Program-made: the position numbers and the translations under genes | Shown here: in pieces, positions 4,371 to 62,563 of the stretch | Layout: each line of letters opens with the position of its first letter | Position numbering within the stretch: position 1 is the stretch's first letter | Sequence record: PX441839.1 | DNA: 64,000 bases | DNA from: a phage | Direction: 5' to 3' (one strand) | Notes under the pieces: model-generated | Told to the model about the DNA's origin: nothing | Database searches by the model: none | Seen by the model: the letters and a program-made list of their open reading frames with translations, nothing else

Positions 4371-4953
4371 CGATACCCTCCATCATGACAGCAAAAAGAA
4401 ATTCTTCCCTTGTTGGATTAAAGGGATCTTCAAAATACTCAACCATCCCCCTTCTGAAAAGGCTTATGGGGAAATTGAAAGAGTCTGTCAATGATCTGCT
4501 GTCGGGACTCACTTCCTCCAGAAAACGTGACCTGCCTCGTAGTGTAAAACTCAGGAGGTTCTTCTCAAAAACATCACAACCTTCTGCCCTGATCCTTCCA
4601 CGAAGTATATCTATCTCCTCGGTATCATTAAGATCCTTTAAAGATCTTGTTGTTGCCAACACCTCCGAGATTTCCAATCCTCTTAAACGAGAATACCAAC
4701 AATGAGATATTGTGCTTATTGTTTGTATTTCATACGCCTTGTTGAACAGTGTATCATGTACCCTAACAGAGTAGCTCGGTCCATTCATCCTGAACTTTAT
4801 TCCAATCTCCTTGTCAAATACACTGCTCAACTCCCAGAGAATACTTTTCCTCTCTGTTGAGTCACGACAGACGATGTACTTTAGGGATGCTTGATCTTTA
4901 ATGCTTTCCCAATTCAGTTCTGAATCCCATTCGCTCAATGAAACACCTCCCAA
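4300..4953 (-). CDS. hypothetical protein (217 aa)
   Basis: ORF track; overlaps both flanking genes by more than 50 nt. Confidence 0.4.
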   Translation of the reverse strand: MGGVSLSEWDSELNWESIKDQASLKYIVCRDSTERKSILWELSSVFDKEIGIKFRMNGPSYSVRVHDTLFNKAYEIQTISTISHCWYSRLRGLEISEVLATTRSLKDLNDTEEIDILRGRIRAEGCDVFEKNLLSFTLRGRSRFLEEVSPDSRSLTDSFNFPISLFRRGMVEYFEDPFNPTREEFLFAVMMEGIGGKTNEEIRAINDAKVYIEGKGN

Positions 4954-5497
4954 TCAAATAGGCATCTGCCAGATCTGTTGAACCACCGTTTTTACCGCTC
5001 TTGGTGTATCCGTCCAAAAAGCCAGGATTCAACATCTCGCAAACCTTCATCATCTCATCCTTACCCATTTTAATCTTTACCATCTTACCTTTTTCATTGA
5101 GGTATTCTTGGTCTTGACCGGGCAATTGGTTACGTGCCCAAGACTTAACAGATGTCGGGGCAACCGTGTGGATCTTGTCCATAGTAAAGCCACTGTTCAG
5201 CAATGTCAACTGAATAATGAAAAACAAACCTGCCAGATCGCGGGTAGCATTACCTGCTGAACCAAAGCTGAGAGATTCAAGGACGACATACTCAGCATTG
5301 AATGATTTAGCCACTCCTGCAATTTTATCTGCGATATACTGCATTTGTTGAACTGGGTGGTCAAACTTAATCTGCCACGGCTTCGGTGTTCCTGAACCTG
5401 TTGTGTGGAGAACCTCCTTGAAGATTGGGACACCGTCTTCAAGAATTGTATATGCACAGGATGCCATACTCTGATCTATTGATAATACTCTCATTTT
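4898..5497 (-). CDS. RuvC-like Holliday junction resolvase
   Basis: MRVLSIDQS... N-terminus after AGGAG RBS; C-terminal DLADAYLIG resembles RuvC DAADALAIA; start refined from track 5584 to internal ATG. Confidence 0.5.
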   Translation of the reverse strand, partial: KMRVLSIDQSMASCAYTILEDGVPIFKEVLHTTGSGTPKPWQIKFDHPVQQMQYIADKIAGVAKSFNAEYVVLESLSFGSAGNATRDLAGLFFIIQLTLLNSGFTMDKIHTVAPTSVKSWARNQLPGQDQEYLNEKGKMVKIKMGKDEMMKVCEMLNPGFLDGYTKSGKNGGSTDLADAYLIGRCFIERMGFRTELGKH

Positions 5498-5795
5498 ATT
5501 CTCCTGTGGAGTGATATTTTTCCAAAATAAACACGTACTGTACGTACCGTTTATCGATCTCGTCATAAATACCAAACATAGCATACTTATCCCCCTTTAC
5601 AGGGGGTTCCATCAAGTATATGGCGCACTCATTACCTTGTTCATTATTCCACACAACAACCCAAGGATCTTCTTTCATTGTCCAAGGCTTATCAATAATG
5701 TAGATCATCTTACGTTCCCCTGGAACAAGACTTGCTCGTACATCATCTGCACGAAGCATACTCTCAACTTGCTCGTCAAAACTCGGTAAGGCCAT
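5496..5795 (-). CDS. hypothetical protein (99 aa)
   Basis: ORF track; co-oriented in operon. Confidence 0.4.
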   Translation of the reverse strand: MALPSFDEQVESMLRADDVRASLVPGERKMIYIIDKPWTMKEDPWVVVWNNEQGNECAIYLMEPPVKGDKYAMFGIYDEIDKRYVQYVFILEKYHSTGE

Positions 5796-9259: not shown

Positions 9260-9490
9260 TTAATATTTCTCAGAGTATGCTTTACTTAGAGTTTCAATCA
9301 TCACTTCTTGGCGAGTCCGAGGGATAATCTCAACACCTTCTGGAACAGTGTTCATAGTAAATGACACGTTTACCATCTGGCCTGTGTATTCATCCATCAG
9401 TTGTGCAACATATGCCGCAACAGATTTGCCTTCACTGGTAGCGAGGAATTTCAGTTTTTCGTAAGTAACTTCATTGAAATTAATGTTCAT
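9260..9490 (-). CDS. hypothetical protein
   Basis: ORF track 9260..9556; start at internal ATG (MNINFNEV) preceded by GGAGA. Confidence 0.4.
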   Translation of the reverse strand: MNINFNEVTYEKLKFLATSEGKSVAAYVAQLMDEYTGQMVNVSFTMNTVPEGVEIIPRTRQEVMIETLSKAYSEKY

Positions 9491-9525
9491 ATTATCTCCA
9501 TTTATTAGGCAAATTATTTTTCCAG

Positions 9526-9546
9526 ATAGCCGCCCTTCTGGGCGGC
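9526..9546 (-). terminator. stem-loop, possible terminator
   Basis: GCCGCCC-TTCT-GGGCGGC hairpin between two minus-strand genes. Confidence 0.35.
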
Positions 9547-9574
9547 AAAACAACATTACTCAGCAGATAAGGGA

Positions 9575-9883
9575 TTACCAATCCACGTTACGGCCCATCA
9601 GGATATCCAGTTCGTTCAGTTGCTCAATCTGGTCTTCCAGAGCGGCGCGTTTCTTTTCTGCGGCATCTTGCTTATCGTATTCACCATTGATCAGTGTACG
9701 CAGGAATTTAGGGTCAATGTTAAGGTCTTCTTTGGTGATTGCCAAGATATCTTTCAGATCCCGTGCTGCATCTTTCTGGCGACGAATCGCATCAACACCC
9801 TCCTGAACAATGTTAGCCAGGCGCTTGCGAGTTTCGATGTCGGAAGGCAGGGTGTTGAGTAATTCCACTTTTAATTTAGCCAT
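9575..9883 (-). CDS. hypothetical coiled-coil protein
   Basis: ORF track 9575..9928; ATG (MAKLKV) preceded by AAGGAG. Confidence 0.45.
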   Translation of the reverse strand: MAKLKVELLNTLPSDIETRKRLANIVQEGVDAIRRQKDAARDLKDILAITKEDLNIDPKFLRTLINGEYDKQDAAEKKRAALEDQIEQLNELDILMGRNVDW

Positions 9884-15867: not shown

Positions 15868-16158
15868 ATGAATATTCAAGAACAGGTTAAAATAACTTTC
15901 GAAGACCTTGTGGAACTACATAAGAAACGAAAATATCAAAAGGGCCGAGAAAAGAAGGCAATGGAGGATGTGGTATTCTTTTCTAAAGATGGTCATGGAC
16001 TTTCCAAGAAAGAGGCAAACAGGAAGGTTGATGCAGCGTGGGCTACACAACGGGACGCTGTGAACATTGTGTCAGGTATTGATAAGCAGATTGAATATGA
16101 ACTGAATGCCATAGGGCAGATTATCAACTTTGTTGCGGAAAAGGAGAGTGATAAATGA
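15868..16158 (+). CDS. hypothetical protein
   Basis: ORF track 15799..16158; ATG (MNIQEQ) after GAGAGGAGAG. Confidence 0.4.
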   Translation: MNIQEQVKITFEDLVELHKKRKYQKGREKKAMEDVVFFSKDGHGLSKKEANRKVDAAWATQRDAVNIVSGIDKQIEYELNAIGQIINFVAEKESDK

Positions 16159-17069
16159 TTTCTTTACATCTCGATAACTTTAAAAGGGTTAAGCTTGAGT
16201 TTATGACGTTCAGCGGTGGAGAGCGTAACGTCCGTATAGGTGGACTGGATGTCGAAAAAGATGGTGTTCTTGAGTTTGCTGGATATGGGGAGGTTGACCA
16301 TCTCTCTCAACGTAAGTGGGAAAATTATCGTGTAACAGCACATATTCAAAGCTCAGATGATATCATGGATCTGTTACTTCTAAAGGATGCCATTGATCGT
16401 GTGGGCAATGGATGTTTGCGACGTGTATACTCAATCCTGCATCTTCCGTATCTCCCATATGCTCGACAAGACCGTGCAATGGTAAACGGGGAGGCGATCT
16501 CTGTTGTCGTTATGGCAAACCTGATTAACTCTCTTGAGTTTGATGCCGTGTGGATTGATGACCCGCATTCTGATGTTGGTCCGTCGCATATAAAAAACGC
16601 CGTAATTACCCCTCAGCATGAGCTTTTGCTGGACATGTGTAACAAAGATGATGTTCTTTCCGATGGAACAATCATTGTTGCACCTGATGCAGGTGCCATG
16701 AAAAAGGCAAGCAAGTTGGCTGAACTCGCTGATTTACCTCTCGGGACTGGTGGTAAACACAGGGATGTCAAGACAGGTAAGATTACAGGAACAACTTACA
16801 CAGGGCCAGATGTAAACGGTAAACGATGCCTGTTGGTAGACGATATTGCGGATGGCGCTGCCACATTTGTGTGTCTTGCAGAGAAACTAAAATCCCTGGG
16901 TGCAAAACAGGTTGATCTGTATGTAACGCACGGCATTTTCTCAAAAGGGATTGATGACCTTGAGCATATCGATAAGATTTATTCGGCATACCCCTGGAGA
17001 AAGAACGTTAAGTGGAAAAATGGAAAAGGTAAGCTAAATACGGTTGACATCGTAAGCTGGTTCGAGTAA
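16155..17069 (+). CDS. ribose-phosphate pyrophosphokinase (PRPP synthetase)-like enzyme
   Basis: YARQDR and LLVDDIADGAAT match Prs catalytic and PRPP-binding motifs; 304 aa; ATGA overlap with upstream gene. Confidence 0.65.
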   Translation: MISLHLDNFKRVKLEFMTFSGGERNVRIGGLDVEKDGVLEFAGYGEVDHLSQRKWENYRVTAHIQSSDDIMDLLLLKDAIDRVGNGCLRRVYSILHLPYLPYARQDRAMVNGEAISVVVMANLINSLEFDAVWIDDPHSDVGPSHIKNAVITPQHELLLDMCNKDDVLSDGTIIVAPDAGAMKKASKLAELADLPLGTGGKHRDVKTGKITGTTYTGPDVNGKRCLLVDDIADGAATFVCLAEKLKSLGAKQVDLYVTHGIFSKGIDDLEHIDKIYSAYPWRKNVKWKNGKGKLNTVDIVSWFE

Positions 17070-17125
17070 AGTACATTTTATCGGGAGGCGTGTTGCCTCC
17101 CACATACAACGAAGGAGAGTTACAT

Positions 17126-24559: not shown

Positions 24560-26044
24560 ATGTCAGCTACTTTCGCACCTGCGAGCCGTAAGCAGCAAAT
24601 GGTTCTCGAATCTCAGGCACAGATCATGGTCATTGGTGGCGCAGCAGGTTCAGGTAAATCATACCTGCTCCAGCTTATGCCTCTCTTGATCGTAGACGAC
24701 CCCAGAACAGCATGTATCATGTTCCGTCGAACTGTCCCGCAGATTCGAGGACAAGGTGGTCTATTTGATAAGGCGAAGGATATTTACAATCAACTTCCTC
24801 CGCAAATCAAGCCAAAATTTAAAGAGAATGAGATGACTGCCACATTCCCTAACGGAGCTACCGTTAAGTGGCAATCCATGCAGCACGTTTCCGACAAATT
24901 CAACATTCAGGGTCTTGAATTTACATTTATAGGTGTAGATGAAGGAACCCAATTCGAATGGGAACAGTTGGAATACATGATGTCTCGTTTACGTTCCAAC
25001 TCGAAATACCCTTCTCGTATGGTTATTTCTTGTAACCCCGATCCTGACCACCATCTTCGTCAGATGGTTGATTGGTATCTTGATGAAGATGGCTATCCTA
25101 TTCCAGAACGAGATGGTGTTCTACGGTATTTTGTCCGTGTAGAAGATAACTACATGTGGGGTGATTCGGTCGAAGAACTGAAAGCCAGATTTGGAAGAAG
25201 ATGTAGACCTGTATCATTTACATTTATATCTTCCACGATCAAAGACAACCCACCGATGATGATCAACAACCCTGAGTATTTGGCACAGTTGGAAGGTCTT
25301 AATGACGTTGACCGTGCTAGACTTCTTCACGGCAACTGGGATGCTCGTCCAGAAGGTGCAAACTACTTTAAGAGATCTTATCTGACAGAGGTTGATGTTC
25401 TACCTATAGGATGTACAAAGGTTAGGTCTTACGATAAGGCGGGTACTGAAAGATCTACGGGTAATAAAACACCTGACTTTACAGCAGGTATTGGTGTAGC
25501 TCGTGATCAGGATGGTTTTTACTACCTTTACGGTAACTACCATGATGAGTTTATAGATGATGGTGAGTGGTCAACGATGACTATGGGCCGATTCTGTAAA
25601 AAGGTTGGAAAAAGAGACACTATCATTAAGAAACAGGCTCATATGGATGGAGATGACACGATCATTATCTTCTCCGTTGACCCTGGACAAGCAGGTTTGT
25701 CAGAATTCATGACTTCTTCAAGAGATCTTATCTCTGAGGGATTCATTGTAGAGAAAGACCCTACACCGGGCAACAAGTCAAAATTGACTCGTTTCTCACC
25801 ATTCGCCCAGCTTGCAGAGAACGGATTTGTAAGGATCGTCAAGAAGTCTTTTCCTATTGACACTTACAATGCCCTAATGAAAGAGTTGGAGCAATTTGAC
25901 GGACAGCGTTCATCCGGTACAAAAAAGGATGACTGGGCAGATGCCGTAGCCTCTGGGATAAACTACCTAGAAAAGCACGACATTGTCAGAGCCGTTGCAA
26001 TCCCCCGTCCTAATGCACCAACCATGTATTCGAGACGAAGATAA
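24560..26044 (+). CDS. terminase large subunit
   Basis: Walker A MVIGGAAGSGKSYLL near N-terminus; 494 aa; immediately precedes portal. Confidence 0.7.
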   Translation: MSATFAPASRKQQMVLESQAQIMVIGGAAGSGKSYLLQLMPLLIVDDPRTACIMFRRTVPQIRGQGGLFDKAKDIYNQLPPQIKPKFKENEMTATFPNGATVKWQSMQHVSDKFNIQGLEFTFIGVDEGTQFEWEQLEYMMSRLRSNSKYPSRMVISCNPDPDHHLRQMVDWYLDEDGYPIPERDGVLRYFVRVEDNYMWGDSVEELKARFGRRCRPVSFTFISSTIKDNPPMMINNPEYLAQLEGLNDVDRARLLHGNWDARPEGANYFKRSYLTEVDVLPIGCTKVRSYDKAGTERSTGNKTPDFTAGIGVARDQDGFYYLYGNYHDEFIDDGEWSTMTMGRFCKKVGKRDTIIKKQAHMDGDDTIIIFSVDPGQAGLSEFMTSSRDLISEGFIVEKDPTPGNKSKLTRFSPFAQLAENGFVRIVKKSFPIDTYNALMKELEQFDGQRSSGTKKDDWADAVASGINYLEKHDIVRAVAIPRPNAPTMYSRRR

Positions 26045-48224: not shown

Positions 48225-48285
48225 ATTCGTATCTGAATATGATAAAATACGACTATCGCCTAATTTAGGAGCACAGGAGGAGACT

Positions 48286-50445: not shown

Positions 50446-51936
50446 ATGGCTAAACCACGCAGCCAGCTTGTCGTTTGGGCAAGACAAGATGTTGCTTTGC
50501 CAAACACTGGCAGGATCAACAAAGTAAAACCTATTGATGACCTGTTGAATAAGGGTTATGATAAAGGTCAGAAGCCAGCGGCAGAAGAATTCAACTACAT
50601 CTTGAACATGTGTACCGATTGGGTACGATACATGCACGATGAGAAATTTCCAGAGTTTGAGAGGCAGATAGAAGAGAAGCTTGAAGCCTTCAAAGACGAG
50701 ATGGAAAAGGAGATGGACAAGGTCCGTGGGGAAATGGACCAATTGGAAGCCTCTGTTAATAATAAACTGGCGGCTTTTGAATCTTACCTTGTTCCAGTAG
50801 GGGCGGTTATTGCTTGGCCCTCTACAACAATACCGAAGGGTTGGTTAGAGTGTAACGGACAAGGTTTCAATATTGGTCAGAACCCCCGTCTGTATGCGGC
50901 ACTCGGAAGAGGTAACGTACCGGATTACCGTGGATTGTTCTTGCGAGGATGGGCACACGGTTCTGGTGAATATGATCCTGATGCAGGAAGGACTCTTGGC
51001 TCCATTCAGGGTGATGCCATTAGGAACATCACAGGTCGATTCGCTGCTGACCACGGTGAAACATGGATCATTGGTGCCTACAACGAGGGGGCCTTTTATG
51101 ATGCAGGTGTTGCTGGGTCTGGTGACAAGGGCGGGAAGGCAAACGAAACCCGTCAGATCCGATTTGATGCCAGTCGTGTTGTACCAACTGCGCCGGAAAA
51201 CCGACCTAAGAACATCGCAGTAATGTACATCATAAAGGCAGATGCTGCAACGGCAACTGGTGGTAATGTCCCAACAGGACTGGAAGTGACACCTGAAACA
51301 TTTGAGGGCCTTGTAGGTTCTACTTTCAGAGCCTCTGCTCAAGTTCTTCCAACGAACATGGCTCCTCAGTATCCTGTATCGTGGACCAGTCAAAACCCAG
51401 CAGTGGCAACTGTGGACGCCCAAGGTAATGTAAGAATTGTTGGTCAGGGGACAACAAGCATTATCGCATCAATATCTTCTGGGATGAACTCTAGGATCTC
51501 CATTGTGGGTCACAAACCTCTTACTGGCCTCTCTATCGCCCAGTTTGAAAATTTAGAGGTCGGTGGGAGCATAAGGACGACTGTAGCAAGAATACCATCT
51601 GATTCAACAGAACCCTTAATCTTCTCCACTGGCAACACAGGGATCGCCAACGTAACTCAAGATGGGGATGTTGTTGGGGTTGCAGAGGGAACAACTACCA
51701 TTTCTGCAAGGGGTCGGTTCACAGGGATAACTGCCAGAGCAAGCATAACCGTTGTTCCAGAAGAGGTTGTGACAACTGTTGAAGACATTATGCTGGGTAT
51801 TGAACAGCAAGCTCCAAACGCTGCACCAAAAGGATGTGTAATAACATACGTCGATGGTGGTGAAAACATGGAGTATGTCAGATATAAGCCCATCCAGAAG
51901 AAGGTAAATGGGGTGTGGGTAACTATTGAGGGTTAA
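50446..51936 (+). CDS. tail fibre protein with tail-collar domain and Ig-like (Big_2-type) repeats
   Basis: GAVIAWPSTTIPKGWLECNGQGFNIGQNPRLYAALG...PDYRGLFLRGW matches phage tail collar motif; two ...ATVDAQGNVRIVGQGTTSI... style Ig-like repeats. Confidence 0.6.
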   Translation: MAKPRSQLVVWARQDVALPNTGRINKVKPIDDLLNKGYDKGQKPAAEEFNYILNMCTDWVRYMHDEKFPEFERQIEEKLEAFKDEMEKEMDKVRGEMDQLEASVNNKLAAFESYLVPVGAVIAWPSTTIPKGWLECNGQGFNIGQNPRLYAALGRGNVPDYRGLFLRGWAHGSGEYDPDAGRTLGSIQGDAIRNITGRFAADHGETWIIGAYNEGAFYDAGVAGSGDKGGKANETRQIRFDASRVVPTAPENRPKNIAVMYIIKADAATATGGNVPTGLEVTPETFEGLVGSTFRASAQVLPTNMAPQYPVSWTSQNPAVATVDAQGNVRIVGQGTTSIIASISSGMNSRISIVGHKPLTGLSIAQFENLEVGGSIRTTVARIPSDSTEPLIFSTGNTGIANVTQDGDVVGVAEGTTTISARGRFTGITARASITVVPEEVVTTVEDIMLGIEQQAPNAAPKGCVITYVDGGENMEYVRYKPIQKKVNGVWVTIEG

Positions 51937-51938
51937 TT

Positions 51939-52454
51939 ATGAAGATGGAAAACTTTGAAGTTTACTCTCCAGAATTTAAAAGGTTTGGAGAGGGCGTCCA
52001 ATATTTTAGGGATGCAGAAGGAAGAGACTTCTATGAGAGTCGTGATCTTTTCACCAAGAAGTATTGCGTGTTCTACGACGAGCATGGGGTTGTAAGGGGT
52101 ATCTGCAAATCAGTGGAGGTTACGAGGGGGAACCCTAACGGTCTATCTATTGCAGATCTCAACTCCTTGCCCAGAGGGTTTGAGATGTTCAAGGGTATCT
52201 GGAAATTCGACGGAAAGAGGATAATTCCTTGTGATTTTGACCCTGCCATAACAACCAAGATGCGGAAGGATAAGTTATTCAAAGCTCTTGCCTCACGACT
52301 TGCCCCTCTTCAAGATGCTGTTGAATTGGAGGAAGCCACAGAGGAAGAGACCTTGGAATATAAAAGGCTCCGTTCATTAAGGGTTAAGCTTCTCCGAGTC
52401 CCAGATGACGAGTCCCCTAGTAATGTAGCTTGGGAAGATTTCTCGGGTATTTAA
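51939..52454 (+). CDS. tail fibre assembly protein (Tfa-like)
   Basis: follows fibre gene; C-terminal EEATEEETLEYKRLRSLRVKLLRVPDDESPSNVAWEDF resembles Tfa chaperone tails. Confidence 0.5.
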   Translation: MKMENFEVYSPEFKRFGEGVQYFRDAEGRDFYESRDLFTKKYCVFYDEHGVVRGICKSVEVTRGNPNGLSIADLNSLPRGFEMFKGIWKFDGKRIIPCDFDPAITTKMRKDKLFKALASRLAPLQDAVELEEATEEETLEYKRLRSLRVKLLRVPDDESPSNVAWEDFSGI

Positions 52455-52494
52455 TAGCTGCCAGTGCCGACCCTGTCGGCACATAGGAGATAAA

Positions 52495-52833
52495 ATGATT
52501 CTTGATATAATGGCAGTTCTTAAAGCACTCTGGGGATTTGCCACTTTTATTTTGTTGGGGATTCTCAAAATTACGTATTCTGACTTCAAAAAGATGCAGG
52601 AACGTCAGGACACTCTTGAGAAAGATATTATCCGACTCAGGAGTGAGATGGTTACTAAGGACAGTCTTGATGATATTTTTGATCGGAAGATGAAACATAT
52701 TCAAGACACTATCCAGGATATACGTGGGGATCTCGCAGACATGCGAGGAGAAACAAAGGACGAGGTTACTGCCTTACGTAATGAAATCAGGACTGTTTTG
52801 AATGTAGTTTTGGAGAGAAGCAACAGACAATGA
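52495..52833 (+). CDS. membrane-anchored coiled-coil protein (112 aa)
   Basis: N-terminal transmembrane helix LKALWGFATFILLGIL then charged helical region. Confidence 0.4.
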   Translation: MILDIMAVLKALWGFATFILLGILKITYSDFKKMQERQDTLEKDIIRLRSEMVTKDSLDDIFDRKMKHIQDTIQDIRGDLADMRGETKDEVTALRNEIRTVLNVVLERSNRQ

Positions 52834-53291
52834 TATCTTCCCTGTTCTACGGGATGTGCTTCCTGATTGTCCTTATGAACCCTTGCGTTCGTACAAAAAT
52901 AATGGCGGGGCTATGCCTCGCCTATATTGTAATAGAGAATATGATGCTTTGGTACACAATAACCAATGTTATCCATTTCGATATTACCCTTTATCATACC
53001 CTCGGGTGGATATTGGATTCAACTCTTTTGTTTGCAGTGGGTTGTGTTTTAAGAGGAAAGAGGCAGATCCTCATCATAGCTTCCGCAATACCCCTTATGG
53101 TGTCTCAAGTGTTAGCAATCCAATATCCTTCTATGTTCCCACCTGATGTATACCAGTGGGTAATTAAAGATGCTCACATGTATTTTATTGAGATGTTTAT
53201 CTTCGCTCATTCTTGGAAAGACAACACAGTAAAAGAGTGGTTAAAGACAGGAACAGTGTTGGGCCTTGTTGTTGCTGCACATTTAGTTTGA
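52830..53291 (+). CDS. polytopic membrane protein (153 aa)
   Basis: several hydrophobic segments; ATGA overlap. Confidence 0.4.
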   Translation: MISSLFYGMCFLIVLMNPCVRTKIMAGLCLAYIVIENMMLWYTITNVIHFDITLYHTLGWILDSTLLFAVGCVLRGKRQILIIASAIPLMVSQVLAIQYPSMFPPDVYQWVIKDAHMYFIEMFIFAHSWKDNTVKEWLKTGTVLGLVVAAHLV

Positions 53292-53310
53292 TTGATATTA
53301 CAGGTGGTAT

Positions 53311-53583
53311 ATGTTAAAATTCCTAAAGGACTTGATCCGGTCCACAACCGACCCTGCCAAGGCTTCACATACAAAGCTTTGGTCGAATATCGGTATGGCT
53401 TCAATGACTGCGGTGTTTCTCTGGTATGGTTTCAAAGGAACCCTCCCTGAGTGGTATTTGTGGGTTTATGCCCCTTCCGTTGCTGCACCACAGTTATTTA
53501 GCAAACTGATCGCCCTTCGTTGGGGAATAAACCCCAACCAGAAGAATACAGAAGATGAATTAAAAGGAGATCCTCGTGGCTGA
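53311..53583 (+). CDS. small membrane protein, holin-like (90 aa)
   Basis: two hydrophobic segments (IGMASMTAVFLWYGF, YLWVYAPSVAAPQLFSKLIAL), charged C-terminus. Confidence 0.35.
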   Translation: MLKFLKDLIRSTTDPAKASHTKLWSNIGMASMTAVFLWYGFKGTLPEWYLWVYAPSVAAPQLFSKLIALRWGINPNQKNTEDELKGDPRG

Positions 53584-56500
53584 TGATATTATTCAACTGA
53601 TCAGTGCAGAAGCTGACGCCGCTGTTGACCAAATCATTGAAGACTCTGTAAGGCTTCATAAAGTTGTAAATGGAACTGGAGTTGAGACAGTTGTAACAGA
53701 AGATGGTAGCATAATCCCTTCTGTTCGAAAAGCCCTGATTGACAACTTGTATTTTAAGACCCCTCCAATTCCTTGGAGACAAGGAACACAGGTAAGAGAG
53801 TTTAACCAACTTTATTCCTTTACCGATGTAAACGGAAAAGCCACTTGGTGGTATGCACCAGGAGCTACAAACAGTTCACCAGTGACGCAAGGTGATCAGC
53901 CAGCTACGGATACAAGATGGAGAGTGTTCTTAGATGCTGGGAATATGGATGGGATCTATGCTCCGATCCTGTCTCCAGATTTCAAGGGAAATCCGAGAGT
54001 ACCCACCCCTGCGGAAGGTGATGAGAGCACCTCAATTGCAAACACACTGTGGACAAAAAATGCGATAGCAAAAGCTATTGACATTGCACTTCCTAACTGG
54101 GATGATGCAATTTTTAACAACATCACTGTTAAAAATAATTCGGTGCTCAATAATCTCAGAGCAGACGGGCAGGTAACTTTTACTGGTCCGAAGGTCGATG
54201 CTGTTGATTCAGAGTTCAACCTTAAAAAGATCAATCTCGTCGGGGAAGATGCAGAAATAAATTTCCTTTGGTCTGATGGATCAGGTTACAGAACAAACCT
54301 GACACCCAACAAGATCTTCACTGCGGAAATGACGGCAAACAGGGTCAAAGGTTCGTATGTTGAATCAGGAGAACCTCGTGCTGTTGGAACAACTATGCGT
54401 GGGCATGGAGAGGCAATCTTTGATACTGTGCATATCTCAAAAAACGAAAGACAGCCAGTGGATGCAGACACATTATCTGTCACTGGGATAACCCGTGTTC
54501 AAAACCTCATTGTAGAGGGAGAGGCAGTAGGGATCAAGTCTAACGTAGATGGAACAACCATCGCACCGAGCAACATAAACAATGATGGGCATATTAATAC
54601 CAAATCCCTGTATGTCTCCGAAGAGACTCAATTGGATGGTATTACAAGGATCGGTGATGTAGAATTCTTAGGGACTGTCAAGGGACTTGATATGAATATC
54701 GAGTTCGACGAGATGAACCTTAAGAGTTTAAATGTCGCAGAATCCCTTGTTGTTGGTGGACAAACAACAATGTCTGCCGCTGTTATCGGAGATGTTGTTT
54801 TCACTGGATCTGTGGCGGGTATCGTATTGCCACCTGCCAATGTCGATGGACAGGAAATAAAACCTGCCTCTGTTGAGACAGAAACTCTCGATGTGTTGGG
54901 AGAGACCGTTCTTGAGAACCTGACAGTAAATGGAACGGTGACTGGCATTGACATGTCTGTAGATGGAACAGACATATCCCCATCAAATGTTACGACAGGA
55001 AACTTAACCGTTAATGGACAGCTTACCATGAACGGGGCTATCCAAATTAACAATATTGATGGTGACTCTGTCAAGACGAAAACGTTAGAGGTCTCCAACT
55101 TAGCAACTGTTCAGAATCTGACTGTTCCAGAGGAAGGGACTATAACGGGTTTTGGAAAGGTTGTCAATGAGCAAGATATCCTTCCAAACTCTGTCTCTGT
55201 AAAAGAGGGGTTGTCTGTAGGAGGAACTACTAACCTGAGAGATGTGAACATCTCTGGGAAAGTAACTGGACTCAATCCCGATTTCGGGCCTGGTTCAACG
55301 ATTACCTCTGACACGGTAAATGCTAAAACGGTAAATGCTGATACTGTCAATGCAACTACTTCCAGGACTGGGAACATAACGGTTACTGGAAGGATCTTAG
55401 ATGCAGAAGGAAATGATTTTGCTCTCCGTGTAAGTCCAGAACAGATTGGTGAAGCTATCAAGGTTCTTGATATCCAGCCAAAAACCATTGTTACTAAAGT
55501 CAGTGATGAGGATAAAGGATCTGTAACCACAGGTACAATCACGGCTGATAATGGAAACATTGGAACTTTAGGGACCAGCAACCTCACCATGCAAAATGGT
55601 ACGGTAAACGGATCTTTGAAGGTGATGGGAGAGATCCTGGACAAGGATGGAAACCCTGTTGCAATTATGGACATTCCGAGCATGATTGCTGGGAAGGACA
55701 TCGCACCGAAGGACGTTAGATCCTCTGGCTCTGTAACTGCCGCTGTGGACCTTACCGTCAATGGAAAGGCCAAGGTAGGTGGAACCTTAGAAACAGGCTC
55801 TGTGACCGTTACAGGAGGTCTCAGCACAACAGGCAGTGTCACTGTAACTGAGCAGCTATCTGTTCTTGGCAACGCTGTTGTTTCTGGAAGTCTACAGTCA
55901 ACAGGTGCGGACATTGGAGGAACGACCTCTGTTGACAATCTGATTGTAGCTGGAACCCTTACAGATGCACAAGGGAACCCAATTGGATCTGTCGAGTCAA
56001 TCACAGGGAAGGATATCAATCCTCGTGCTGTAACTGCAACTGGTAATATTTCCACAACAGGGACTATTACCGGACAGTCTGGTAGAGTAGATGAATCATT
56101 CACTGTAGGAACTGACCTTGGGGTTTCAGGTAAGTTGTCAGCAGGAGAGACAACACTTGGAGTCACAAAAACATCTTCTCTGGAAACAGGTCCAATAAAG
56201 ACATCTGGAATATCTGTCCTTGAGGGTAGTATTTCGACAGGCAAAGCTGTGACTGTAGGAACTGACCTTACTGTAACAGACAATGCCGTCATCGGTCATG
56301 TAGATATGGATTTTGACGGTGATCGGTTGAAGGTTGTGGGGAACCAACGGGTAGAGGGGAACCTGTATGTAACTGGAAACATCAACGGGAACGTAGATAT
56401 TTCTGGGCAGGATATTAACCCGAGATCTGTAACTGCCTCTGGTAATATTTCGGTTGCAGGTACAATTAGCTCCGACATTGGAGATTTCAACTCTGTCGAG

Positions 56501-57064
56501 ATTGGTGTTTCTGGAACTGCGGTTGGCCTCAGGGTCCTCAATAATGCAACTTTTGCTGGAGATCTCACTGTCTCAGGAAAGGTCAATGCAACTATTGACC
56601 AATCCGAGCAAGATGTAGTGACAAAGAACCTGCAAACTGGTAATATAACTGCAACGGCTATAACTGCTGGAAGTTTAAATGTTACTGGTGCTCTTAAGGC
56701 CCCGACTTCGGATGTTGAGGCAAACAGTGTCACTGCAAACAAGTTCATGGTCACACCTCAAGAAAGAACGCTAGATACTGGGGCATTTATCCCTGATGGA
56801 ACAACCAATATCTACAATATTGTATTGACACAGAATACAAGAATTGAGGCCCCTAGTCAACTTATTCAAGGTGGCAAGGGTGGTTCTATCATTATCTACT
56901 TGAACCAGGATGCAACTGGTGGTAGGGAGGTAACATTCTCCACAGAGTATCAAGCTCTTAATGATGGTGAAATAAATATGAACCCTAGTGGTGTTACTGT
57001 GGTCCAGTTGATGTATTCTGGACATGGAAGCATCATTGATACACTTATCCTTCCTAGAGTGTAA
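53576..57064 (+). CDS. long tail fibre / tail needle protein (1162 aa)
   Basis: GTG start after AAAGGAG; highly repetitive beta-rich sequence with recurring V.G.L.V.G and T.GNIT.TG units. Confidence 0.6.
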   Translation: MADDIIQLISAEADAAVDQIIEDSVRLHKVVNGTGVETVVTEDGSIIPSVRKALIDNLYFKTPPIPWRQGTQVREFNQLYSFTDVNGKATWWYAPGATNSSPVTQGDQPATDTRWRVFLDAGNMDGIYAPILSPDFKGNPRVPTPAEGDESTSIANTLWTKNAIAKAIDIALPNWDDAIFNNITVKNNSVLNNLRADGQVTFTGPKVDAVDSEFNLKKINLVGEDAEINFLWSDGSGYRTNLTPNKIFTAEMTANRVKGSYVESGEPRAVGTTMRGHGEAIFDTVHISKNERQPVDADTLSVTGITRVQNLIVEGEAVGIKSNVDGTTIAPSNINNDGHINTKSLYVSEETQLDGITRIGDVEFLGTVKGLDMNIEFDEMNLKSLNVAESLVVGGQTTMSAAVIGDVVFTGSVAGIVLPPANVDGQEIKPASVETETLDVLGETVLENLTVNGTVTGIDMSVDGTDISPSNVTTGNLTVNGQLTMNGAIQINNIDGDSVKTKTLEVSNLATVQNLTVPEEGTITGFGKVVNEQDILPNSVSVKEGLSVGGTTNLRDVNISGKVTGLNPDFGPGSTITSDTVNAKTVNADTVNATTSRTGNITVTGRILDAEGNDFALRVSPEQIGEAIKVLDIQPKTIVTKVSDEDKGSVTTGTITADNGNIGTLGTSNLTMQNGTVNGSLKVMGEILDKDGNPVAIMDIPSMIAGKDIAPKDVRSSGSVTAAVDLTVNGKAKVGGTLETGSVTVTGGLSTTGSVTVTEQLSVLGNAVVSGSLQSTGADIGGTTSVDNLIVAGTLTDAQGNPIGSVESITGKDINPRAVTATGNISTTGTITGQSGRVDESFTVGTDLGVSGKLSAGETTLGVTKTSSLETGPIKTSGISVLEGSISTGKAVTVGTDLTVTDNAVIGHVDMDFDGDRLKVVGNQRVEGNLYVTGNINGNVDISGQDINPRSVTASGNISVAGTISSDIGDFNSVEIGVSGTAVGLRVLNNATFAGDLTVSGKVNATIDQSEQDVVTKNLQTGNITATAITAGSLNVTGALKAPTSDVEANSVTANKFMVTPQERTLDTGAFIPDGTTNIYNIVLTQNTRIEAPSQLIQGGKGGSIIIYLNQDATGGREVTFSTEYQALNDGEINMNPSGVTVVQLMYSGHGSIIDTLILPRV

Positions 57065-57074
57065 TGTAAACAAT

Positions 57075-57103
57075 AGCCCCTACTAAGGGGCTATTTTACT
57101 TTT
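57075..57103 (+). terminator. rho-independent terminator
   Basis: TAGCCCC-TACTAA-GGGGCTA then TTTTACTTTT. Confidence 0.6.
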
Positions 57104-57114
57104 GAGGAGACAAA

Positions 57115-59613
57115 ATGATACCTTTCCCATTATTAGGTGGAAAATCACCAACTCCACCACCGCCACTTCCAAAGGGCGTTTCTGGGTACTCAGGAACTAC
57201 CTACATAGGTGAAGATGGTGAAACTTGGTCTTGGAACAGGCAACTGGAGAGATGGATTAAAAAAGATCCGTTTCCAGTTGACGAAGGGCATCCTGAACAC
57301 TTCATGGTGGGGCCTGCAAAGATAGGCACAGATGGTTCTTTCCGATACTTCAATACTGTAACCAACGCTTGGGAAGATGTTCCTAACGGGAGCACCTTGG
57401 GGATGGTCCCTCTGACCCTGACAGATGAAGGCGTAAACATAGGGACATCGGTATTTGTAGAGTATCCCATTTATCAATCCGCTGGGTATGCCGTAGGTCT
57501 TGGAGGGTTCGCAAGACTGCTTGGGACGGAGGTACTGGGAAGACCAGATCTTATGGACCTGTACCTTATAGGAAGAAGAGGGGATTTCTTTTCACCTTCT
57601 CCTGCAAACCCTGACTCCACCAACGCAATTCTCGTAATTCGAAATGTTAAAAGGGATAGGGTGTGGAATACTTACCTGAACATGGTTGTGGAAACAAGTG
57701 ATGGGGAGATGTGGGCTTGGGGAATGAACTTCTATAATCAGTACGGCCCTTGGATAAGAAGCGGAGTAACAAGTTCCAGTCAACCACACATGAAGATAAA
57801 CCCATTCTCTAAAATATCTGATTTTCCAGTACCACCTGAGAAAATAAAAGATATCTTCCCCGGTGTAACAATGGTCATAGTTGCAGACACTGACGGGAAA
57901 TTCTGGTCCAAAGGGATTAACATTGGTCAGTTTAACGATATTGATGACCAAATTAGGACAGCCTGGGTAGAGATACCCGCAGATAGGTTCCCAGGGTTTA
58001 AAAAGTTTTATCGGAGTCTTAACGGAACAGGTGCCGCCAATGATCTTGCTTACACCAACTGCGTTTGGTATTTGACAGATACAGGGATAAGACATTTTGG
58101 AAATGTGTATGGAGTGATGGACGGTTCCCCACTTGTATCTGCAACAACTAGGGATCTCCCTGACAGTAAAGTTCACTCAGCCCCTGTAGGATTGCCTGAA
58201 AGGAATGATGAGCCTAAAATAGTGAGTTTTTCACTGGCCAGATCTTCTGACTATATCCTTATTGCTGTTTGGTATGATGACCCCGAAGAGATGTATGTTG
58301 CCTATCCTACTTCTGGACTTATTTGGGACCACGCAGATGGAGTAACGTATGGGAGGAGATTCAATAAATCCTCAGCCCCTGTAGGGAAGCATAGGAACCC
58401 CATACTGGACTTCAATAAAGAGGCCACCCTTATAACGGGGTTTGATGGAAAATTCTATGCTTCTGGGACCCCAAGTGTAAATAACGGGCTATACTCAAGA
58501 ACCAGCCCAACCACTTTTATCGACCAGAAGATGCCATCCTCTCTCGTTTATCAGGTTGAGCTATCCGACTCTGTAAACGGAAAAACTCAACTGTTGAGAA
58601 ATGATAGGCGTTCTTTAATGATAGCCGACCTTTCGGGAGGAAGCAACTACTTTGGAAATGGAACTTTCTGGAAACCAACTGCAACGATTAAGTGGCCTGA
58701 CTATCCAGACGCAATTCCAATAGTGTTCAAGAATGATGGTGTCACTATCTCGGGATCTGCTGAAAGGGTAGATACGTTTTGGGGGTGGAATGTTAGCAAC
58801 TACAACACTGTCAGCAGTACAGCCGGAGACCAGTACGGTGCTCCCAGTGGGGATGCTGTGCATGTCTCAGGGGAAGGGCACCTTACAATCTGGAAAGATG
58901 ATAGCAGTATCCTTGTTGGTGGTTACAACATAGGTGGAGTGTTTGGTGCTTTTAACCAGTGGAAGCAACCACAAGGTGCTGGAAGGTGGGTAGGCACAGT
59001 AAGAGAGTCTTTTACTGGCACATCGACAGTAAGCTGCGGAACCACTATTGCTTGGGATGGAAAAGATCATTACATATTTGGCAAAAACTACTGGGATGTT
59101 GCAAACGGACAACCAGTAATAAAGTTCAGTTCCTCTGCACCTGTAAAATGGAACAGTAAACAGGGATACCCGAACCTCCCTAATTTTATAAAATGGATTC
59201 CTGCAATTATGGGATATTCTGATGACGAGGGTTCTTTGCAACAACCCTTCTTTATGTATCGGGGTACTGACGGTCTGTTTTATGCTGCGGGTAGCAATAC
59301 AACAGGTGCCTTGGCGACAGGGACCCCACCTGAGACAAGGGATGAGCAAAGATGGACTTTTGAGGTAATGAAGGGATCTGAGGTGTTTGTTGGTAAAAAT
59401 GTTAAGGTTTACCACGGACACGGAAATACCTCTTGTTTGTTGTTCGCTTGCGAGGGAAAGGTGTACGGTGTTGGATTACCTAACAGTATGAAATGGAATG
59501 ACACCGGAACCATCCCTGACCCGTTCTTCCCTGGTTTCAACAGAAGGCTTAATGAAATCACCTACCTGATGGATTTGCCGGATGTTATCTATACCCGACC
59601 AATAGAAGAATAA
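57115..59613 (+). CDS. RCC1-like beta-propeller repeat protein, probable tail protein (832 aa)
   Basis: repeated RCC1-type motifs GEMWAWGMNFYNQYG, GKFWSKGINIGQFND, GLFYAAGSNTTGALATG, GKVYGVGLPNS; AGGAG RBS. Confidence 0.5.
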   Translation: MIPFPLLGGKSPTPPPPLPKGVSGYSGTTYIGEDGETWSWNRQLERWIKKDPFPVDEGHPEHFMVGPAKIGTDGSFRYFNTVTNAWEDVPNGSTLGMVPLTLTDEGVNIGTSVFVEYPIYQSAGYAVGLGGFARLLGTEVLGRPDLMDLYLIGRRGDFFSPSPANPDSTNAILVIRNVKRDRVWNTYLNMVVETSDGEMWAWGMNFYNQYGPWIRSGVTSSSQPHMKINPFSKISDFPVPPEKIKDIFPGVTMVIVADTDGKFWSKGINIGQFNDIDDQIRTAWVEIPADRFPGFKKFYRSLNGTGAANDLAYTNCVWYLTDTGIRHFGNVYGVMDGSPLVSATTRDLPDSKVHSAPVGLPERNDEPKIVSFSLARSSDYILIAVWYDDPEEMYVAYPTSGLIWDHADGVTYGRRFNKSSAPVGKHRNPILDFNKEATLITGFDGKFYASGTPSVNNGLYSRTSPTTFIDQKMPSSLVYQVELSDSVNGKTQLLRNDRRSLMIADLSGGSNYFGNGTFWKPTATIKWPDYPDAIPIVFKNDGVTISGSAERVDTFWGWNVSNYNTVSSTAGDQYGAPSGDAVHVSGEGHLTIWKDDSSILVGGYNIGGVFGAFNQWKQPQGAGRWVGTVRESFTGTSTVSCGTTIAWDGKDHYIFGKNYWDVANGQPVIKFSSSAPVKWNSKQGYPNLPNFIKWIPAIMGYSDDEGSLQQPFFMYRGTDGLFYAAGSNTTGALATGTPPETRDEQRWTFEVMKGSEVFVGKNVKVYHGHGNTSCLLFACEGKVYGVGLPNSMKWNDTGTIPDPFFPGFNRRLNEITYLMDLPDVIYTRPIEE

Positions 59614-61306: not shown

Positions 61307-61371
61307 GGTGAAATCTCCTTTCATTAAGTTATGGGTCTATTATATAAGACCCACCTCAATTAAGTCAACAC

Positions 61372-61728: not shown

Positions 61729-62112
61729 TTATTTTCTCCCCTTCTTACGGTGATAAACTCCACGTTTGGACAGAGGAATTTCCTCTGCATCTCTTCCATC
61801 AACACCATCTTCACCAGGTTCACCTTGAGGACCCATTGGACCTGCTGGTCCCATTGGCCCCATAGGTCCTACAGGTCCAGTGACAACACGAATGTCTTTA
61901 GGTTTGTACAGAGAATAACCCAAGCATCCAAACCAACCGATAAGTGTAATTACGCTCGGAGGCAAAAGGAAGAAGATAACAGTAAAGACAGAGATCATCC
62001 ACTTATTCCTGTGATCCTTCTTCCATGCGATAATTATTGGGGAAAAACTAATTGCCAATAAAATTAACAGAAAAACAAGACCGAGAGTGATGGCAGCTTC
62101 TGCAATTATCAT
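61729..62112 (-). CDS. membrane protein with short collagen-like segment
   Basis: two hydrophobic segments followed by TGPVGPMGPMGPAGPMGPQGEPGEDGVDG. Confidence 0.4.
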   Translation of the reverse strand: MIIAEAAITLGLVFLLILLAISFSPIIIAWKKDHRNKWMISVFTVIFFLLPPSVITLIGWFGCLGYSLYKPKDIRVVTGPVGPMGPMGPAGPMGPQGEPGEDGVDGRDAEEIPLSKRGVYHRKKGRK

Positions 62113-62390
62113 TAACGAAGACCCTCTTTGATTTTAAGTTCAATCAACCCTGCATCCAGGGTATACATGTATCCAGTGTTATCCCGAAAGTAACAAAGGA
62201 CTCCCTTGGGTTCGGATTTTCTTACTATGACCCGACCCCTTTGATAACCAGGTTGTGTTTCACAAACCTTGTACAGTTCCTGAATACGGGAAGGCAGAAT
62301 AGTATGAGAATTCTTGTACTTATCCTCACCTTCTTCCAGACACCCTGTCAAAAGTACAGAGCACAGTAGTGCAATAATTAACTTTTTCAT
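62112..62390 (-). CDS. lipoprotein
   Basis: MKKLIIALLCSVLLTGC signal peptide with lipobox; ORF track 62112..62426. Confidence 0.45.
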   Translation of the reverse strand: MKKLIIALLCSVLLTGCLEEGEDKYKNSHTILPSRIQELYKVCETQPGYQRGRVIVRKSEPKGVLCYFRDNTGYMYTLDAGLIELKIKEGLR

Positions 62391-62563
62391 GCGCAGAATG
62401 CCGCCACAATTAGTGAAAAGGGCCACACGATCCCGAAAATTACAGAGGGTCCTTTGTCAATTCTGCAAAATCGACGATAGAATAGTCGCCCTGCTCCAAC
62501 ACTGATCAGGATATAGAGTAAAGATACAAGTAACTCAAGTGCATATAATGTTAAAAAATTCAT
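62387..62563 (-). CDS. small membrane protein (about 58 aa)
   Basis: Not in ORF track (under 60 aa); hand translation MNFLTLYALELLVSLLYILISVGAG...IVWPFSLIVAAFCA; stop overlaps lipoprotein start (ATGA). Confidence 0.3.
   Translation of the reverse strand: MNFLTLYALELLVSLLYILISVGAGRLFYRRFCRIDKGPSVIFGIVWPFSLIVAAFCA

Follow-up and report, generated by a model that had tools for sequence, protein, structure and literature searches.

Three conserved small membrane-protein genes in the tail-fibre region of an rV5-like phage form a candidate lysis-control module

The closest described arrangement to the one considered here is that of phage T4, in which the holin gene t lies directly after the fibre-assembly gene 38 (gene order 37-38-t), at the end of the late long-fibre operon, and in which accessory membrane and cytoplasmic proteins, the antiholins RI and RIII, tune the timing of lysis. 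Two other points of reference are the class II holins with two transmembrane domains (TMDs), such as S68 of phage 21, and the releasin gp25 of phage Mu, a DUF2730 protein; the proteins of this family are predicted to have their N-terminus outside and their C-terminus inside (PMC9239132). The definitive criterion for a holin is the formation of lethal holes that can be triggered early by membrane depolarisation (PMC9239132), and for the rV5-like phages the genome announcement of phage LL12, in which the lysis genes were specifically sought, states that no holin was identifiable with certainty (PMC6658697). Here, we analyse a stretch of 64,000 nucleotides (nt) of phage DNA (sequence record PX441839.1; hereafter, the window) in which three consecutive genes for small membrane proteins, gA (52495-52833, 112 amino acids, aa), gB (52830-53291, 153 aa) and gC (53311-53583, 90 aa), occupy positions 52495-53583 of the plus strand, between a tail-fibre assembly gene and a long tail-fibre gene, exactly where a first-pass annotation made from the letters of the sequence had placed them. 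We propose, with a probability of roughly 0.45, that this trio is a lysis-control module in which gC is the holin and gA and gB are its partners; taken by itself, a role of gC in lysis appears rather probable.

The evidence that carries this proposal concerns the family to which gC belongs. gC matches phrog_1322 (E = 1.3e-29) essentially from end to end (residues 1-82 against profile positions 3-83 of 87), a family that is labelled "membrane protein" and is filed by PHROG under the category "moron, auxiliary metabolic gene and host takeover". When IMG/VR was searched with an alignment of gC, remote relatives of 27-42% identity were returned, in all of which the motif SHTK[FLV]W[SN]N[IV]G is present. 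Seven of these gC-like proteins match phrog_1322 themselves (E values of 1e-12 to 4e-21), a profile built from Vequintavirinae-type gC sequences only scores the remote members at 31-47 bits versus at most 6 bits for the other open reading frames (ORFs) of the same loci, and searches of phage collections with the remote members return the gC genes of Vequintavirinae. Judged by these profile comparisons, the remote gC-like proteins are true members of the gC family.

Lysis cassettes of at least five unrelated phages have a phrog_1322 member in the holin slot. The gC-like gene is followed by a Phage_lysozyme gene (E = 5e-46) and a gene for a protein with an N-terminal TMD in locus L065; it precedes a gene for a coiled-coil protein with a C-terminal TMD and a Phage_lysozyme gene (E = 9e-39) in L071; and it lies between an endolysin gene (phrog_873, E = 4e-63) and a gene annotated "Rz protein" in Ralstonia phage RS138. 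The Mu-like locus L066 has the order Peptidase_M15_4, gC-like protein, Rz-like protein, coiled-coil protein with an N-terminal TMD, terminase, and Pseudomonas phage Bise has the order Mor, Peptidase_M15_4, gC-like protein, Rz-like protein, coiled-coil protein with an N-terminal TMD, TerS. In such cassettes the gC-like gene overlaps the neighbouring gene by 4-8 nt, and the endolysins encoded beside it, which represent three enzyme classes, have no N-terminal membrane or signal segment; therefore, each of them needs a hole-former. Hence, it is because its relatives lie in the holin slot, and not because of its own shape, that we consider gC most likely to be a holin or a holin-like timing protein, hole formation being a prediction. 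In L069, L070, L071, L066 and Bise, a gene for a single-pass coiled-coil membrane protein also adjoins the gC-like gene or lies close to it. As a separate observation, the gC-like gene of L065 is preceded (4940-5721) by genes for a DUF5658-matching protein of 112 aa and a polytopic membrane protein of 148 aa, together with a short ORF with a C-terminal TMD, a layout that loosely parallels gA plus gB and in which no sequence similarity to them was detected.

Under the proposed model, gC would accumulate in the inner membrane during late gene expression and would permeabilise it at a set time, after which a muralytic enzyme and then the spanins would finish lysis, with gA, a membrane-anchored coiled coil, and gB acting as antiholin- or releasin-like partners or regulators of gC. 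This part is suggested for both proteins by linkage, by translational coupling and by the recurring pairing of gC-like genes with coiled-coil genes; the gA stop codon overlaps the gB start codon (ATGA), and the gC stop codon overlaps the GTG start codon of the long-fibre gene. Moreover, gB would be an accessory component that can be lost, since it is missing from Vequintavirus, where a fibre gene stands in its place. We infer these roles of gA and gB in lysis, as we do the topology of all three proteins. The spanins in question are a two-component pair consisting of an i-spanin (23240-23608, plus strand), with a basic N-terminus, a TMD and a coiled coil, and an o-spanin (23608-23928, plus strand) with the lipobox IIMGC. 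The pair adjoins the large terminase gene (24560-26044), as the spanins are placed in the phage CB7 paper, and lies 29 kb from the trio, in agreement with the first-pass view that any holin set here would stand apart from the spanins. The lysin gene lies outside the 64-kb window.

Several points weigh against this proposal. None of the holin models of Pfam, NCBIfam or PHROG is matched by any of the three proteins, so that of the earlier suggestion of a holin/antiholin set the general idea is favoured by the phrog_1322 genes in the holin slot elsewhere, but a match to a characterised holin family is not part of the support. Comparison with the T protein of T4 by hhalign gave probabilities of 0.2-0.5%, that is, no homology, and literature searches returned neither an experimentally tested member of phrog_1322 nor any publication on that family. 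As for gC itself, its rV5 homologue gp29 has no TMD by TMHMM or Phobius, its hydrophobicity is marginal, the second helix being weak and interrupted by prolines, its C-terminal tail lacks a net basic charge, and the strong conservation of the polar motif SHTKxWSN, together with the 100% conservation of gA, is unusual for holins and antiholins. Neither gA nor gB has detectable relatives in the lysis cassettes examined. In large myoviruses, the gC family is always found among baseplate, fibre or neck genes (e.g., between sheath-stabiliser and neck genes in the T4-like locus L067), and this residence could reflect a role in assembly. Further, as phage Mu illustrates, there are lysis cassettes with no holin at all, and cassette position is thus no proof of holin function (PMC9239132). 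There are also competing candidates. In Salmonella phage SSBI34 (MZ520832), an unannotated ORF of 76 aa with two hydrophobic helices (L025, 9117-9347, minus strand) overlaps the stop codon of a SleB-like lysin gene (9344-9865) whose product carries a signal peptide; this ORF, the counterpart of CB7_82, resembles class II holins and competes with gC as a candidate, and CB7_82 itself, rV5 gp129, and peg.280 and peg.320 of KP12 are likewise holin candidates located beside lysins. Accordingly, gC could instead be an antiholin or another lysis factor.

Whatever their function, the three ORFs behave as conserved genes. The stretch from 51.9 to 53.7 kb shows 83% identity to SSBI34 and also matches Escherichia phage UPEC06, both of them Vequintavirinae myoviruses of ~140 kb, and by these matches the source phage is an rV5-like Vequintavirinae myovirus. 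Compared with SSBI34, gA is identical at 112 of 112 aa despite a nucleotide identity of 88% (synonymous divergence, dS, of ~1; ratio of nonsynonymous to synonymous divergence, dN/dS, of 0.004), and the dN/dS values of gB and gC are 0.086 and 0.069; as judged from these ratios, gA, gB and gC are real genes under strong purifying selection. In the same comparison, the fibre-assembly protein shares 74% aa identity and the two fibres share 82% and 75%, versus 100% for gA; gA has thus stayed unchanged beside a fibre-assembly protein and fibres that have diverged, and therefore the trio serves a core function rather than a receptor-specific one. gA matches phrog_5345 (E = 4e-39) and gB phrog_7451 (E = 8.5e-57), and a scan against NCBIfam gave nothing useful for the trio.

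The first-pass annotation had described the trio as inserted into the tail-fibre region, a description that the distribution and composition of the genes do not bear out. Their G+C content equals that of the flanking DNA, and by tblastn the numbers of phage records with a match are 374 for gC, 222 for gA and 107 for gB, with the gC records covering all Vequintavirinae genera, phi92/phAPEC8-like Stephanstirmvirinae and Aeromonas Plateaulakevirus phages. On this basis, the trio is an ancestral block and not an insertion. A survey of gene order in 46 IMG/VR loci and several annotated genomes revealed three arrangements. Type I, to which the window belongs, has the order wedge, baseplate protein, fibre 1, fibre-assembly gene, gA, gB, gC, fibre 2; type II (Vequintavirus) is the same except for a fibre gene in place of gB; and type III (Stephanstirm-like) has the order gp25-like gene, gC, wedge, baseplate protein, fibre 1, fibre-assembly gene, gA. 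In all three types gA comes directly after the fibre-assembly gene, which is its conserved upstream neighbour. No relatives of gC or gA were found in 185,579 bacterial and archaeal species (one representative genome each), and therefore the family is not prophage cargo there, nor do these genomes provide a tailocin context. Two public records show annotation problems: gp131 of phage tuntematon (L004, 8969-9304), annotated "lipoprotein", lacks a lipobox and is a gA-like coiled coil whose TMD is N-terminal, and in Aeromonas phage 2L372D a gB-like polytopic ORF of ~146 aa (L005, ~4490-4930), located between gp077 and gp076, was left without annotation.

With respect to the proteins themselves, the first-pass description of a single-pass coiled-coil protein followed by a polytopic one agrees with hydropathy, which gives one helix for gA and four for gB, and with the annotation of the homologues in phage PVP-SE1. 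gA has one N-terminal hydrophobic helix (approximately residues 5-24) followed by a coiled coil, with an acidic D4 at the N-terminus and invariant K10 and W13; its homologues are annotated (PVP-SE1 gp44, Octopus and Phobius) or listed (rV5 gp31) with one TMD. After the TMD, its most conserved feature is the motif M-V-T-K-D at residues 52-56 (nt 52648-52662), which in HMMER alignments corresponds to the MATKED of Protein Data Bank (PDB) entry 6h9l (E = 5.6e-4) as well as to the beta-layers of the GCN4-MATKDD constructs 5apx and 5apw. The consensus of beta-layers, which occur as elements in trimeric coiled coils, is [aliphatic]-A-T-K-[polar]-[DE] (PMC4786415); gA carries a motif typical of such coiled coils and is therefore probably a trimer. 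In searches of sequences of known structures, gA matched only coiled-coil and beta-layer structures, and gB and gC matched nothing. A profile search of 1.8 billion representative proteins found ~15 full-length relatives of gA, all coiled coils of 92-112 aa with an N-terminal TMD; the remaining matches were repetitive coiled coils, none of them DUF2730-like (these hits were not scanned against Pfam). In 29 of 29 examined members of the gA family the extreme N-terminus contains an acidic residue and no basic one, and the basic residues follow the TMD, which fits a topology with the N-terminus outside and the C-terminus inside, as predicted for Mu gp25, the orientation being ambiguous owing to the invariant K10.

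Two identities for gA were considered and rejected. It is not an i-spanin: neither gB nor gC has a lipobox, the true spanin pair lies elsewhere in the window, and the charges flanking the TMD of the i-spanin, whose N-terminal flank is lysine-rich, are opposite to those of gA. Nor is it a homologue of the Mu releasin, for which BLASTP found nothing and hhalign gave a probability of 10.8%; gA had no match to DUF2730 (PF10805) in a Pfam scan at E values up to 0.1, in which Mu gp25 itself matched with an E value of 2.5e-13, and we keep the releasin as an analogy only. No lysin gene was found among the genes examined near gA. The match of gA to DUF1640 (PF07798), at 15 bits, is likewise below the cut-off of 33.5.

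gB, with four clear hydrophobic segments and a homologue (PVP-SE1 gp43) annotated with four TMDs by Octopus and Phobius, is predicted to span the membrane about four times, as a polytopic protein; residues D51 and D63 are invariant, and no relatives were detectable outside the clade. gC begins with a basic amphipathic N-terminus and continues with a clear hydrophobic helix (residues 23-41), a weaker proline-containing helix (48-69) and a charged tail, with the conserved motif SHTKLWSNIG at residues 19-28 (nt 53365-53394); the hydropathy sum of helix 23-41 is comparable to those of the TMDs of lambda S. The two-helix architecture that had been ascribed to gC thus holds at the level of the family, but gC itself has one clear helix and one weak one. 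More generally, the expectation of transmembrane helices in all three proteins is supported by hydropathy and by the one, four and one TMDs annotated for the PVP-SE1 homologues (gp42 being that of gC, again by Octopus and Phobius), with gC a marginal case, since rV5 gp29 is listed with none. AlphaFold models of gC and gB were of low confidence (predicted local distance difference test, pLDDT, of 58 and 53, respectively) and were used for helix positions only. One record in nr names a gC homologue as DUF2644; we rejected this assignment, since gC and 15-16 close relatives gave no hit to that model at E values up to 10. One remote family member, that of L067, is borderline, with 20.8 bits over nearly the full DUF2644 model, below the gathering cut-off of 22 bits, and no literature on DUF2644 was found.

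The context of the trio points to late expression together with the baseplate and fibre genes. A promoter scan found no sigma-70-like promoter above chance near the trio; a private promoter was rejected, as transcription from the single candidate, a sigma-70-like match at 53292-53320, would begin inside gC and such matches are no more numerous than chance predicts. The first convincing terminator downstream is a bidirectional terminator-like hairpin in the intergenic region at 57072-57095, with a 10-bp stem and T-rich flanks on both strands, and weaker terminator-like matches occur inside gB. The late-promoter-like motif TGGTAAAATA, taken from the rV5 paper, shows enrichment across the window (15 matches, allowing up to one mismatch, vs. 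5.3 expected; none of 100 shuffles reached 15), and the nearest copy upstream of the trio (48240-48249, plus strand, one mismatch) lies 37 nt before the baseplate wedge gene, with no further copy until 56638. Its sites include 48240, 22529, 37854 and 44766, and exact copies stand just upstream of late plus-strand genes. The Certrevirus early-promoter consensus occurs once in the window, on the minus strand at 61339-61370.

Between the fibre-assembly gene and gA, the plus strand carries a GC-rich stem-loop, GTGCCGAC-CCT-GTCGGCAC (52464-52482), without a U-tract and just upstream of the gA ribosome-binding site AGGAG (52485-52489). By folding, the position and structure of this hairpin are kept, with different stem sequences, in SSBI34, CB7 and UPEC06, whereas PVP-SE1, Murica and L026 lack it. 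A possible function is to set the level of membrane-protein expression through mRNA processing, stability or attenuation. The corresponding sites in relatives are at ~12565-12585 in L001, ~3132-3152 in L027 and ~7971-7990 in L002.

Proteomic data are available for the homologues of the trio in phage CB7. Tandem mass spectrometry (MS/MS) of CB7 virions did not detect CB7_33, CB7_34 and CB7_35, the counterparts of the three genes, and detected CB7_29-31, CB7_36 (the homologue of the long fibre, thus confirmed in the virion) and CB7_37; the assembly chaperone CB7_32 was not detected either. The CB7 homologues of the trio, being undetected, thus do not appear to be virion components. This result bears directly on the earlier suggestion of an injection accessory, i.e., that the proteins travel with the tail or baseplate and enter the inner membrane of the host to assist genome delivery. 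The genes do lie among tail genes, and mass spectrometry easily misses small hydrophobic proteins, but both flanking proteins were detected, the soluble domain of gA offers many tryptic peptides, and the gC family is also found in lysis cassettes, so that we regard virion-borne accessories as extremely improbable. Superinfection exclusion or a related anti-defence function, also raised at the outset, would have the trio block the DNA entry or the tail lysozyme of a second phage, like Imm and Sp of T4, whose sizes and architectures resemble those of the trio. The PHROG category of phrog_1322 is in line with this, as is the gC-like gp032 of Stenotrophomonas phage Mendera (L076, 4851-5234), which, unlike the family members in lysis cassettes and tail operons, stands alone on the opposite strand in a replication module, beside the DNA polymerase gene and with its own terminator. 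However, the trio lies in an apparently late operon without an early sigma-70-like promoter nearby or a promoter of its own, does not co-diverge with the fibres, has no match to the Imm or Cor profiles (phrog_1039, phrog_1119), and belongs to a family that is not prophage cargo in the bacterial and archaeal representatives searched; hence, exclusion is disfavoured and seems quite improbable. A version in which exclusion masks the receptor and is linked to the receptor-binding protein was rejected because gA is 100% conserved while the fibre-assembly protein and the fibres are only 74-82% identical.

The strongest rival, which we nevertheless consider unlikely, is that the trio is a membrane-anchored platform for the assembly of trimeric fibres or the baseplate. 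That is, a gA trimer at the cytoplasmic face, together with gB and gC, would register or tether assembly intermediates while staying out of the virion. Such a role would account for the constant place of gA behind the fibre-assembly gene in the three gene-order types and for the location of gC within structural genes, whether it precedes a fibre gene, as in types I and II, separates the gp25-like gene from the wedge gene, as in type III, or lies between the sheath-stabiliser and neck genes, as in L067. Tail fibres are trimers, and the beta-layer motif of gA is known from trimeric coiled coils; the acidic N-terminus of the 29 gA members fits a cytoplasmic coiled coil, gA is as strongly constrained as the baseplate proteins, and the CB7 homologues escape detection in the virion just as the assembly chaperone does. 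Set against these points, in Mu-like and small phages the gC family lies between endolysin and spanin genes and not with tail genes, gB is dispensable in Vequintavirus, the membrane orientation of gA is ambiguous given the invariant K10, and no tail fibre or baseplate is known to depend on a dedicated integral membrane protein during assembly. It is also conceivable, but in our estimation very improbable, that both roles are combined and that gA, gB and gC form an inner-membrane device coupling morphogenesis to lysis, a checkpoint between tail-fibre assembly and lysis timing. In such a device, the trimeric coiled coil of gA at the cytoplasmic face would sense or bind trimeric fibre or baseplate intermediates and, via gB, would restrain the gC holin until assembly is complete; if true, a checkpoint of this kind has not previously been described for any phage. 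Among these alternatives, we favor lysis control by gC with gA and gB as partners.

The surroundings of the trio are those of the late structural region, through which the window runs, with the tape-measure and baseplate genes at 42-50 kb. Upstream of the fibre-assembly gene lies a collar/Ig tail-fibre gene (fibre 1, 50446-51936); the fibre-assembly gene itself (51939-52454, plus strand) encodes a Caudo_TAP protein (phrog_136, E = 2.7e-33; PF02413, E = 5e-7), and the long tail fibre (53576-57064, plus strand) is a protein of 1162 aa (phrog_4549, E = 2e-194). On the 3' side of the long-fibre gene, a gene at 57115-59613 encodes a protein of 832 aa with weak RCC1-like (beta-propeller) repeats, which shares 43% identity with its SSBI34 counterpart vs. 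96-97% for baseplate proteins; the CB7 gene in the same position, CB7_37, encodes a virion protein, and the 832-aa protein may be a hypervariable receptor-binding component. Farther along, two small minus-strand ORFs (61729-62112 and 62112-62426) in a leftward-transcribed region give weak PHROG superinfection-exclusion hits, one to the "immunity to superinfection" family phrog_1039 (E = 1e-7) as well as to collagen-like fibre repeats, and the other to the "Cor superinfection exclusion" family phrog_1119 (E = 9e-4). Upstream of the packaging genes, the window holds genes for nicotinamide adenine dinucleotide (NAD) salvage (ribose-phosphate pyrophosphokinase and nicotinamide phosphoribosyltransferase; 16155-18916) and an HNH-like ORF of 171 aa (20451-20966), followed, before the spanin and terminase region, by an ORF-poor stretch of ~1 kb (21400-22400) that could hold tRNA genes or a mobile element.

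What is new here is the link between phrog_1322 and the holin slot; that the genes encode membrane proteins was already known, and they are annotated everywhere as "membrane protein". This link provides a concrete and directly testable candidate, found in 374 phage records, for the holin of rV5-like phages. Together with their phi92/phAPEC8-like relatives, the Vequintavirinae rank among the virulent enterobacterial phages that are isolated most often, and cocktails for therapy and biocontrol commonly include them. If the role of gC were confirmed, a new holin family would be established, one whose juxtamembrane motif is conserved to an unusual degree, and the "membrane protein" annotations could be corrected in hundreds of genomes. 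Further, gA would be the first phage example of a membrane-anchored beta-layer coiled coil.

In comparison with the known systems, gA resembles Mu gp25 in its size, short acidic N-terminus, N-terminal TMD, basic residues and C-terminal coiled coil, as well as in probably being the product of a late gene and not a virion protein, and in Bise and L066 proteins of gp25 architecture are encoded two genes after the gC-like gene; unlike Mu gp25, gA has no sequence match to that family and is not within five genes of an endolysin gene. With DUF1640/CCDC90 proteins gA shares the beta-layer motif [aliphatic]-[A/V]-T-K-[polar] at the start of the stalk, whereas its TMD is at the N-terminal and not the C-terminal end and its Pfam score is, as mentioned above, below the cut-off. 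gC, in turn, is like the class II holins, e.g., S68 of phage 21, in its small size, its basic N-terminus, the weak hydrophobicity of its two helices and the charges in its C-terminal tail, and in having family members beside endolysins, and it differs from them in lacking a holin profile match, a conserved dual-start motif and a net basic tail. Its juxtamembrane motif, SHTKxWSNxG, is also far more conserved than is usual among holins. Finally, as in T4, the genome is that of a large virulent myovirus with scattered lysis genes. The T protein of T4, with 218 aa, one TMD and a large periplasmic domain, is quite different from gC, with its 90 aa and two short helices, and the locus described here, unlike that of T4, consists of three adjacent membrane-protein genes between two fibre genes. 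Nonetheless, should gC prove to be a holin, this would be the second case, after T4, of a holin encoded behind a fibre-assembly gene.

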